Source of the DNA: Pecten maximus | Lineage: Eukaryota | Direction of reading: 5' to 3' | Assembly: GCF_902652985.1 (NCBI RefSeq) | Contig: NC_047017.1 | Span: 8,804,001-8,868,000, forward strand | Length of the DNA: 64,000 nucleotides | Part shown: piece by piece, positions 10,117 to 12,354 of the stretch | Layout: each line of letters opens with the position of its first letter | How positions within the stretch are numbered: the stretch's first letter is position 1 | Translations under genes and position numbers: made by a program | Notes under the pieces: model-generated | What the model was told of the DNA's origin: nothing | Seen by the model: the letters and a program-made list of their open reading frames with translations, nothing else | Databases searched by the model: none

Positions 10117-10561
10117 ATTAGAATCCTCAGGATACCCAGGGAGAATGTTCCAGGGGGGATTACTACTGATCCCTCCACTAATTGGGACATACGGAGACTC
10201 CAGGAGGTCTGGGGTCTCCTCCTCTGTGCCCCAACCCCCGTATGTCAGACGTCAAATACTCAACAGTTGTGTCCGCCCCGGGGTGGTCCGAGGTATATAT
10301 CCTCCCTGTTCGAGGTATGTGACGGTTGATACCACAACACATATATTTCTAAAGGGTCAAACAACAAACACCCACGAACATGTGACACCACACATGTATA
10401 TATTCCTCACTTGACTACCAACCCTGATAATAGATCTCCCCCTACTCTGCAGTTGTGTCTGCCCCGGGGTGGTCCTAGGTTTTATCCTCCCTGCTACGAG
10501 GAAAGTGGTATCTATTTTTTATACTCAACACCACATTAACTGTAGGGATACGTATGTTTAC

Positions 10562-11510
10562 TTACACACCAAACAAAAATATATCCCGCATACACCACGA
10601 TAGGAAATAATGTGTATTGTACAGCTTCTCACCTCGTCAGGTGCACTTAAGTGAATGATCCGTACAAAAGCATTATAAACACTCACCAAACAAAGATACA
10701 AAACGCATACACCACGATAGGAAATAATGTGTATTGTACAGCTTCTCACCTCGTCAGGTGCACTTAAGTGAATGATCTGTACAAAAGCATTATAAACACT
10801 CTCACCAAACAAAAATACAACACGCATACACCACGATAGGACATAATGTGTATTGTACAGCTTCACACCTCGTCAGGTGCACTTAAGTGAATGATCTGTA
10901 CAAAAGCATTATAAACACTCACACCAAACAAAAATACAACACGCATACACCACGATAGGACATAATGTGTATTGTACAGCTTCACACCTCGTCAGGTGCA
11001 CTTAAGTGAATGATCTGTACAAAAGCATTATAAACACTCACACCAAACAAAAAATACAGCAGGCATACACCACGATAGGACATAATGTGTATTGTACAGC
11101 TTCACACCTCGTCAGGTGCACTTAAGTGAATGATCTGTACAAAAGCATTATAAACATCACACCAAACAAAAATACAACACGCATACACCACGATAGGACA
11201 TAATGTGTATTGTACAGCTTCACACCTCGTCAGGTGCACTTAAGTGAATGATCTGTACAAAAGCATTATAATCACTCTCACCAAACAAAAATACAACACG
11301 CATACACCACGATAGGAAATAATGTGTACTGTACAGCTTCTCACCTCGTCAGGTGCACTTAAGTGAATGATCTGTACAAAAGCATTATAAACACTCACAC
11401 CAAACAAAAATACAACACACTTTCACCACGATAGGAAATAATGTGTATTGTACAGCTTCTCACCTCGTCAGGTGCACTTAGTAGTGAATGATCCGTACAA
11501 AAGCATTATA
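10562..11510 (+). repeat. Eight tandem ~119-bp units in the LINE 3' UTR, each with a ~70-nt fold-back
   Basis: accaaacaaa starts at 10568, 10685, 10804, 10923, 11042, 11161, 11280 and 11399. Confidence 0.95.
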
Positions 11511-12354
11511 TATTCCCCAAACCACACAAAAAACGCATCGCAACATATGAACATCTATACCATTCATACACAATTTGACATCAGATATCCACCTACTCTG
11601 CAGGTGTGTATGCCCCGGAGTGGTCCGGGTTGTAGACCCCCTGTGACGAGGAACGTGGTATCTACCTTCTAAAACATGTACCTAAATACACCAACACACA
11701 CCCCGAATATAGATGTGGGGACCTCCCATGCCAATACCATCTGGCAACTCCCCTTTCTAAACCCCCTTCCTCCCCTCCTATCCTTTCCTCTTACTATTAC
11801 TAATCGCTATCAACTGTGCTTTATGTACATAGCACTGCTCCAGTAGGGTAGGCTTGTAGATGATTATACACAGTAATCAACAGTCTCCCGAAAAACAGTC
11901 TTTGTATAATAACTCGCATTATCACGTAATCCAAATTTCCTATGCTTACCCAAGCCCAGCACTACCTCTTTATAATCACCCTATAACTACACTCTACATA
12001 ACAAACTAGTCTGATCCATACCCTACCCCTTACCCATTCGAAAACACCATGGTTAGCAATACAAAATGGTGTCTAGAATTCCTACTATCAATAACAAAAC
12101 TATATCCCACTAACAAACTATACCAAATATTTCAAACCAATCTATACTCTATCTCACGCTATCTTCTACACTTCTTGTCCTTCGGAAGGGACGTTAATCC
12201 GGGGTCCGGTGTACGGTGAGTCACGCCGTGCACGTTAAAGATCCTCTGCTGGTATTCGAACAAGAGTAGGCTAATTGCTAGCCGCCACAGAGTATAGGTT
12301 CATATAGGTCTAGATTAGGATAATGTAGGGCATTAAGGCAATTCAGTGACAGGA

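Follow-up and report, generated by a model that had tools for sequence, protein, structure and literature searches.

The I group of LINEs includes the Nimb clade, whose members have, in the cited sections of PMC4245944 and PMC4758252, an ORF1 and an ORF2 with endonuclease, reverse transcriptase, and RNase H domains. Their target-site duplications are mostly 10 to 15 nt long (with a peak at 12 to 13 nt in Nimb-2_DR [PMC4245944, in part]), and they end in a short tandem-repeat tail. Another member of the I group, the I factor, carries an RNA localization signal read by Egl-BicD, which according to passages of PMC13186709 recognizes two helices parted by 3'-strand bulges. Stability elements in the 3' untranslated region (UTR) are known from transposon RNAs of both classes (sections of PMC12846552). 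Viruses recruit ZCCHC14-TENT4 through CNGGN pentaloops (sections of PMC11055085), and the recognition consensus of the SAM domain of Smaug is given as CNGGN0-3 in a portion of PMC4053848. Here, we describe a scallop LINE that resembles the Nimb elements in its ORF2 domains, target-site duplications, and short tandem-repeat tail and that carries, in its 3' UTR, three copies of a structured RNA module (module A).

The window, a 64,000-nt stretch of the Pecten maximus genome, covers an animal histone gene cluster. The LINE lies within it, and its parts and surroundings are as follows.
6877..6935, minus strand: a second, shorter piece (59 nt) of this LINE's 3' end, located at the start of H2A and sense to it, with duplications at 6865-6876 and 6936-6947
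7092..7098, plus strand: H2B TATA box (TATAAAA), whose first base precedes the upstream target-site duplication by 21 nt
7113..7126, plus strand: upstream 14-nt target-site duplication, likely containing the H2B start site
7127..9957, plus strand: LINE ORF2, 5'-truncated, with reverse transcriptase and RNase H
9958..12565, plus strand: LINE 3' UTR of 2.6 kb, ending in a (TCAA)n tail at 12547-12565
10123..10232, plus strand: head module H, a predicted three-way junction common to the sister LINE family and a MULE family
10250..10324, plus strand: module A1, a predicted three-way junction on a long bulged stem that can be extended to about 10246-10328
10431..10514, plus strand: module A2, a predicted three-way junction
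10607..11509, plus strand: array of eight module B units with a period of about 119 nt, A/C-rich linkers, and predicted three-way junctions
11583..11663, plus strand: module A3, the sole A copy kept in one subfamily (L122, L133, and L136)
12180..12295, plus strand: Nin-like segment, with a related segment in the sister family
12499..12542, plus strand: 3'-terminal stem-loop, with loose ends at 12500-12503
12566..12579, plus strand: downstream target-site duplication, followed by histone H2B (ATG at 12609)

On its sequence features, we classify the element as an I-group, Nimb-like LINE. Full-length relatives encode endonuclease, reverse transcriptase, and RNase H domains, the latter two of which are present in the window copy, and 27 of the 43 called target-site duplications are 10 to 15 nt long. 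CCHC zinc knuckles in ORF1 are a feature of the I group and of Nimb elements; ORF1 of the scallop element matched no Pfam family at an E value of 0.05, zinc knuckles included. A reverse transcriptase tree of 32 rows (one locus without a match was omitted, and no named Nimb reference was among the rows) joined the window element's family (family 1) with its sister family (family 3) at support values of 100/98. Because its backbone stayed open, the tree does not show that modular UTRs arose only once. The scallop element differs from Nimb-2_DR, as characterized in the cited sections, in its 2.6-kb modular 3' UTR, its Pfam-less ORF1, and its insertion 21 to 23 nt behind TATA starts; the words "transcription start," "TATA," and "promoter" are absent from the main text of PMC4245944. 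In the literature searched, we found no paper that deals with the module A motif or with a Nimb-like LINE that targets start sites. The motif is thus undescribed in these sources, and the family might already carry a name in Repbase or in subscription journals.

The earlier note had remarked that such a motif would be useful to an element co-transcribed from a host promoter, and the LINE is inserted in sense orientation at the H2B start, downstream of an intact TATA box. An empty allele is found near 17660-17870, with the counterpart of the 14-nt duplication near 17845-17860. The exact LINE 3' end occurs 280 times in the genome. Using a loose duplication call (70 junction records, 27 of them without a call), a TATAWA started 15 to 28 nt upstream at 21 of 43 sites, mostly at 21 to 23 nt, compared with 3 of 43 on the opposite strand and 4% of random positions. 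We also made a stricter count on the first 30 loci per family, from which repeat contexts were dropped and in which TATAWA had to lie at -25 to -19. Family 1 then gave 6 of 12 sites (9 of 12 under a relaxed criterion; 18 called, 6 dropped) and family 3 gave 4 of 11 (14 called, 3 dropped; two of the kept calls resemble tail sequence). An I-group family with a short UTR and no modules gave 0 of 12 (1 of 12 relaxed; 13 called, 1 dropped), and the random background of the strict count was 1.5 to 3.2%. Frequent sense insertion about 22 nt behind TATA starts was seen in both module-bearing families (loci L193 to L222 and L297 to L326). The targets include histone genes, the 5' ends of other repeats, and a 5' UTR resembling that of a ribosomal protein gene, and at single promoters short insertions can be stacked (L040, L054, L166, and L219). 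The LINE clearly prefers transcription start sites. As transcription starts about 30 nt behind a TATA box, the start site would fall within the duplicated sequence, and the element would be under the control of the promoter upstream of it. A LINE whose insertions peak so sharply at polymerase II start sites provides a model in which promoter capture and mutagenesis directed at the 5' ends of genes can be tested.

The link between modules and promoters is what an aptamer for the RNA polymerase II initiation machinery would produce, if the A modules tethered the LINE particle to promoters. Both module-bearing families are TATA-linked, the module-less one is not, and B2 and Alu RNAs are known to bind polymerase II. 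The correlation is based on three families, however, and module H is also present in the mRNA of a DNA transposon. We consider such tethering quite improbable.

Several neighboring insertions are worth recording. One family 3 insertion (L321) lies directly before a tRNA-derived SINE head, which suggests that polymerase III starts may be further targets. At L045 (G000:C6, near 17426000), the insertion directly precedes a sequence that we take to resemble the twister ribozyme consensus and that is probably the 5' end of another retroelement. A second LINE family with reverse transcriptase and RNase H, lacking the modules, is present in the window at 19390-23532, 26339-30000, and 35733-40003. One of its copies adjoins the H4 5' UTR in antisense orientation, and a family 1 copy is located at the 5' end of a related element (L163).

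Copies with both ORFs were found at H2A (L121), at H3 (L122 and L136), and behind another TATA box (L132), and the 1,261-amino-acid ORF2 frame is unbroken in L121 and L122. Three of these full-length copies share a 650-nt 5' leader (L122:830-1480, L132:460-1100, and L136:650-1300) that L121 lacks. The leader may be a true 5' UTR or captured host sequence, and it may contain an internal promoter. In L121 and L122, ORF1 and ORF2 share a reading frame, with 30 nt and two TAG codons between them. The first methionine of ORF2 lies within the first endonuclease motif, a hint that translation of ORF2 may begin at a non-AUG codon or by reinitiation.

The three A modules could all be read in the sequence at the coordinates given in the earlier note, with the ends CGUCA..UGACG, UAGAU..AUCUA, and AGAUA..UAUCU. 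The closing stems (AACAG/CTGTT, GCAG/CTGC, and GCAGG/CCTGT) and side hairpins (GAGG/CCTC, AGG/CCT, and GGGT/ACCC) are likewise present. A 15-nt core occurs exactly three times in the window, always on the plus strand (in shuffled sequences, allowing up to three mismatches, the mean was 0.44, and 1 of 100 reached three). In the 918-Mb genome, exact matches to a 21-nt degenerate version of the core number 40, against none for the reversed control. The overall prediction is a stem of about 18 bp bearing a junction. When folded in isolation and compared with shuffled sequences, A1 and A3 had z scores of -2.0 and -3.5. A2 (z = -0.08) was no more stable than its shuffles, and its minimum free energy fold differs.

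The conserved core itself covaries little, so two candidate inner folds stay in play. The core permits two mutually exclusive hairpins, namely, five pairs closing CCGG or a CGGR-GUGG-UCCG hairpin. With the outer stems fixed, the energies favor the CCGG hairpin in A1, A2, and one old copy; in A3, in the sister family, and slightly in another old copy, they favor the CGGR-GUGG-UCCG hairpin. The CCGG fold has 5 bp and a 4-nt loop; in A3, the closing pair of this hairpin is a C.A mismatch and the loop has 6 nt.

The earlier note took the covarying stems as a sign of selection on structure. Compensatory changes are confirmed in the outer stems and the side hairpin: in an alignment of 24 A copies, the basal and closing stems and the side hairpin all contain double changes. 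In this set, 91.0% of cells were paired, compared with 85.2% in shuffles (none of 500 was as high) and 33 to 46% in slid controls. The number of double-changed pairs (eight) was not above shuffles (259 of 500) in these 24 related rows. With ten lineage representatives, 91.1% were paired and four pairs were double-changed, which 24 of 500 shuffles equaled or exceeded; in this set, pair four of the side hairpin coincided with a gap column and carried no information. Module A is supported as a structured RNA under selection that is absent from Rfam, and it adds a eukaryotic motif family that Rfam lacks. Two further contacts were considered and discarded. Alignment columns 41 and 79 seemed to covary as a tertiary pair, but the signal amounts to one family change plus a copy explicable by two CpG decays, and older lineages break the pair. 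A pseudoknot uniting both inner hairpins is sterically impossible because there is no linker.

The core of A1 and A2 is the palindrome CCCCGGGG, and that of the sister family is CTCCGGAG, a double change at pair 43-48 that keeps the palindrome. Palindromic cores could let the modules pair with each other, or the modules could bind the element's own ORF1p or ORF2p, in either case to package or condense the ribonucleoprotein particle. A Pfam-less ORF1 may need a special RNA signal, and a palindrome (TTTCGAAA) is also invariant in a module of a clam LINE described below. Still, the core of A3 (CCCCGGAG) breaks the outer palindrome pair, yet A3 is the sole copy in one subfamily. An intramolecular hairpin explains the same double change, and H is also present in a transposon without ORF1p. 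We therefore regard a packaging signal as rather unlikely.

Small catalytic RNAs typically have a conserved unpaired core set among covarying stems, and LINEs transcribed from host promoters often bear ribozymes at their 5' ends. The modules could thus cut or trim the host-promoter transcript, either as a new self-cleaving ribozyme or as an RNA that resists Xrn1. The earlier note had found no known ribozyme class that fits, and our Rfam search agrees: no ribozyme matched at the gathering score or at E values up to 10, and the models for hammerhead, HDV-like, twister, pistol, and hatchet ribozymes gave no match. In the whole window, Rfam reported histone stem-loops alone, and in positions 9950-12600, it reported one weak snoRNA match (E = 6.4), which lies among the 119-nt repeats. 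Cleavage within the 3' UTR would deprive ORF2 of the tail that is required for priming. If the RNA were cut at A, or if Xrn1 stalled there, copies that begin at A would also be expected; the 5' ends are instead scattered, which disfavors both activities. In this indirect test, 3 of the 41 5' boundaries listed upstream of 12150 were in or at an A module (the list takes in family 3 homology edges and internal breaks). Several copies span ORF2 through the modules, contigs of sequencing run X1 cross A1-A2 and A3 (contigs cannot show ends), and the 5' strand is paired in the long basal stem, not free for the ring threading of an Xrn1-resistant RNA. Of the three functions that the earlier note offered, protein binding thus fits best, and self-cleavage and nuclease blocking, disfavored by the scattered truncations and the copies spanning the modules, are very improbable.

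Protein binding could serve transport. The I factor, in the same group, uses such a signal, and the modules could carry the intronless LINE RNA to the germ line nucleus as that signal or retroviral export elements do. Copy number varies, as would be expected of additive signals. In the 24-copy alignment, the basal arm of module A has helices parted by a 1- to 2-nt 3' bulge; the I-factor signal, also a structured signal in an I-group LINE RNA, likewise has helices parted by 3' bulges (PMC13186709, in part). The Egl-BicD requirement is two helices of at least 6 bp separated by a short stem with 3' bulges; the basal arm has helices and 3' bulges but ends in a junction. The targets of Egl, in contrast, are plain bent hairpins without a three-way junction or conserved core. 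The I-factor signal, as presented in the cited part of PMC13186709, is a single bent hairpin in coding sequence, whereas the A modules are repeated junctions with a conserved core in a 3' UTR. In addition, the H-bearing mRNA of a DNA transposon needs no delivery of RNA to the nucleus. A transport role is in our view unlikely, though worth keeping in mind.

Beyond the first reading of the locus, module A proved to be one of several cassette types in the LINE 3' UTR, which runs in the order H, A1, A2, eight B units, A3, Nin-like segment, terminal stem-loop, and (TCAA)n tail. The linkers contain 8% G compared with 28% in the A modules. We take the segment at 12180-12295 to resemble the Nin domain of SINEs. 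The shortest insertions begin at the 5' base of the terminal stem-loop, which is likely the template signal of the reverse transcriptase. The A modules are unlikely to serve as such a signal, because the shortest insertions consist of the terminal stem-loop alone and because H is common to a DNA transposon. With cleavage, Xrn1 stalling, and a template role set aside, the A modules would act on mRNA fate or in particle assembly. Module B has the same arm of five pairs and a four-nucleotide loop at the junction entry as A, and an old A copy has ACAGTCGCGTC at its junction entry, identical to a family 3 B unit. From this shared entry and arm, A and B are likely paralogues, and such paralogy would favor the CCGG fold. 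The A covariance model, however, gave the B units no score.

Among the loci supplied, the covariance model of A matched only in the 3' UTRs of this LINE group or pieces thereof. The C-terminal part of family 3 ORF2 is 42 to 44% identical to that of family 1, and H plus A1 reach 88% nucleotide identity over 186 nt; family 3 carries its own B array. Mixed arrays show that modules have been exchanged between families, and the identity between families may therefore partly reflect recent swapping. Older decayed lineages contain A variants (E = 1.4e-11 and 3.3e-9 with the model). Relatives were sought elsewhere by pattern scans, with no match in metagenomes, GTDB contigs (H pattern), or viral contigs. 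A protein scan found one locus in metagenomes, not independent at 99% identity, and none in viral contigs.

Modules have also been lost. At least three loci of a family 1 subfamily (L122, L133, and L136), one of them with an intact 1,261-amino-acid frame, have H, A1, and A2 deleted and A3 kept, so three copies are not required. One family 3 copy is without A and two have a broken A, and at one old locus, decayed A copies lie in tandem repeats. The joint loss of H, A1, and A2, the missing or broken A of family 3, and the decayed tandem copies would all suit selectively neutral duplicates of a once useful hairpin, spread via slippage and recombination. Neutral duplicates would not be expected to show repeated compensatory changes among A1, A2, A3, and the sister family, nor a near-invariant core within diverged flanks, nor an independent triple module in a clam LINE. 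We think neutrality improbable.

Outside LINEs, module H follows the stop codon of a multicopy PHD-OTU-MULE transposon (Pfam assignment; L138:2434-6100 and at least seven further loci). The H modules are duplicated there, and 6 of 34 pairs are double-changed over nine rows. The covariance model found no module A in the MULE loci. A retrotransposon and a transposon of the DNA class thus have 3' UTR modules in common. Since the latter makes no reverse transcription template, mRNA fate is the likely level at which the cassette works. The 3' region of the MULE (L138:2434-6100, L389 to L394, and L396) contains a further twice-repeated hairpin module with a ACCAACCGCAAGACGGGGGT core.

A more distant LINE with a modular UTR came from 54 loci fetched from GTDB contigs. 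This element, from a clam symbiont bin (L224:4459-4964 and L236:2280-2795; 35% identity) and likely host DNA, carries in its roughly 2-kb 3' UTR three diverged 110- to 120-nt modules of another type, which include the invariant palindrome mentioned above. Over six rows representing three modules, 10 of 41 pairs are double-changed, and there was no Rfam match at an E value of 1. When the A model was run on 11 LINE loci of greater distance, taken from symbiont bins and others and including the clam element, its best E value was 0.43, and homology of the clam module to A is therefore unsupported. Another clam-associated LINE (L223:4200-4500) has a multibranch element after its stop codon with possible crossing stems, CCCCGAGG/CCTCGGGG and CCAGGTTC/GAGCCTGG.

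The reading we prefer, though tentatively and short of calling it probable, is that the A modules are repeated docking sites for a host RNA-binding protein that shields the LINE mRNA from decay. An upstream host promoter would transcribe the LINE. The 2.6-kb 3' UTR contains no AATAAA or ATTAAA, and the RNA, without a poly(A) signal, would run into the host gene and so acquire a very long 3' UTR, which would be a target for nonsense-mediated decay and deadenylation. For such a run-on transcript, protection would be needed. The Y-shaped modules on G-poor linkers would bind the protective factor, with more copies giving more binding, and repeated junctions on unstructured linkers would be suited to multivalent protein binding. 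Should the modules stabilize mRNA, they could be considered as components of expression vectors and would lead to a host factor exploited by animal transposons. There are points against protection. The subfamily with H, A1, and A2 deleted has spread (one copy with an intact frame), the argument from the MULE depends on module H, and the 650-nt leader could hold an internal promoter.

The first candidate for the protein, a guess and an improbable one, is a SAM-domain adaptor of the ZCCHC14-TENT4 or Smaug type reading the CCGG loop. In one of the two inner folds, CCGG stands at the start of the hairpin loop, matching CNGGN0-3, and the loop length is within the 4 to 8 nt of SAM-domain recognition elements. 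In that fold, module A has in common with HBV PRE SL-alpha and HCMV SL2.7 (ZCCHC14-TENT4) and with Smaug elements a loop starting with CNGG, a place in a mobile or viral mRNA, and presence in several copies (PMC11055085 and PMC4053848, each in part). It differs from them, as they appear in these sections, in that its hairpin is one of two folds, has a 4-nt loop, and is an arm of a larger junction on an approximately 18-bp stem. The CNGGN pentaloop described for ZCCHC14 is not seen, as the A loop has 4 nt (6 nt in A3), and the CNGG loop is absent from modules B and H and the clam module. Binding of the Smaug type would moreover destabilize the RNA. The ENE triple-helix elements of plant and fungal transposon RNAs are like H in being 3' UTR elements of both retrotransposons and DNA transposons; in contrast to ENEs as outlined in part of PMC12846552, no U-rich internal loop that could clamp a poly(A) tail is present in the alignments of A, B, and H.

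Two other origins or roles for the modules were rejected. An internal ribosome entry site for the downstream host gene is unlikely because A3 lies about 900 nt before the 3' end. As for a tRNA or SINE origin of the core, an old variant agrees with a SINE A-box region in 15 of 16 nt but lacks the GG that should come next, and a GTTCGA-like word is found in A1-type copies alone, about 24 nt off. ARAGORN found no tRNA in eight loci. The Rous sarcoma virus direct repeats and RNA stability element and the Mason-Pfizer monkey virus (MPMV) CTE are duplicated or post-stop structured elements that export or protect unspliced retroelement RNA, and there one copy can suffice; they belong to a different class of element.

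Finally, we compared four runs over positions 9700-12700, all as contigs. In X1, which we guess to be RNA, one contig spans A1-A2 at a depth of 16.8 and another A3 at 43.5, near the 7 to 9 seen at the end of ORF2. The B array reached a summed depth of up to 96,960 in this run, a figure for which there is no DNA-run control. An array without ORFs elsewhere in the genome (G000:C18:11720600-11724100, L153:5700-9100), with at least 17 B units of both family types and two worn A copies, seems to account for the depths of 10^4 to 10^5 in X1, judging by loose ends that look alike by eye. It is possibly an abundant decoy long noncoding RNA. A broader scheme, which we offer as a long shot, would have mollusc transposons trading a toolkit of three-way junctions (A, B, H, and relatives) that hijacks a host pathway. 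In the LINE, the toolkit would protect read-through transcripts and tether the particle to the polymerase II start complex, placing insertions in the open promoter, and the ORF-less array would act as a decoy. In X19, recorded as RNA, no contig covers the A modules, which is no proof of absence, and X12 and X17 contain A1 variants.
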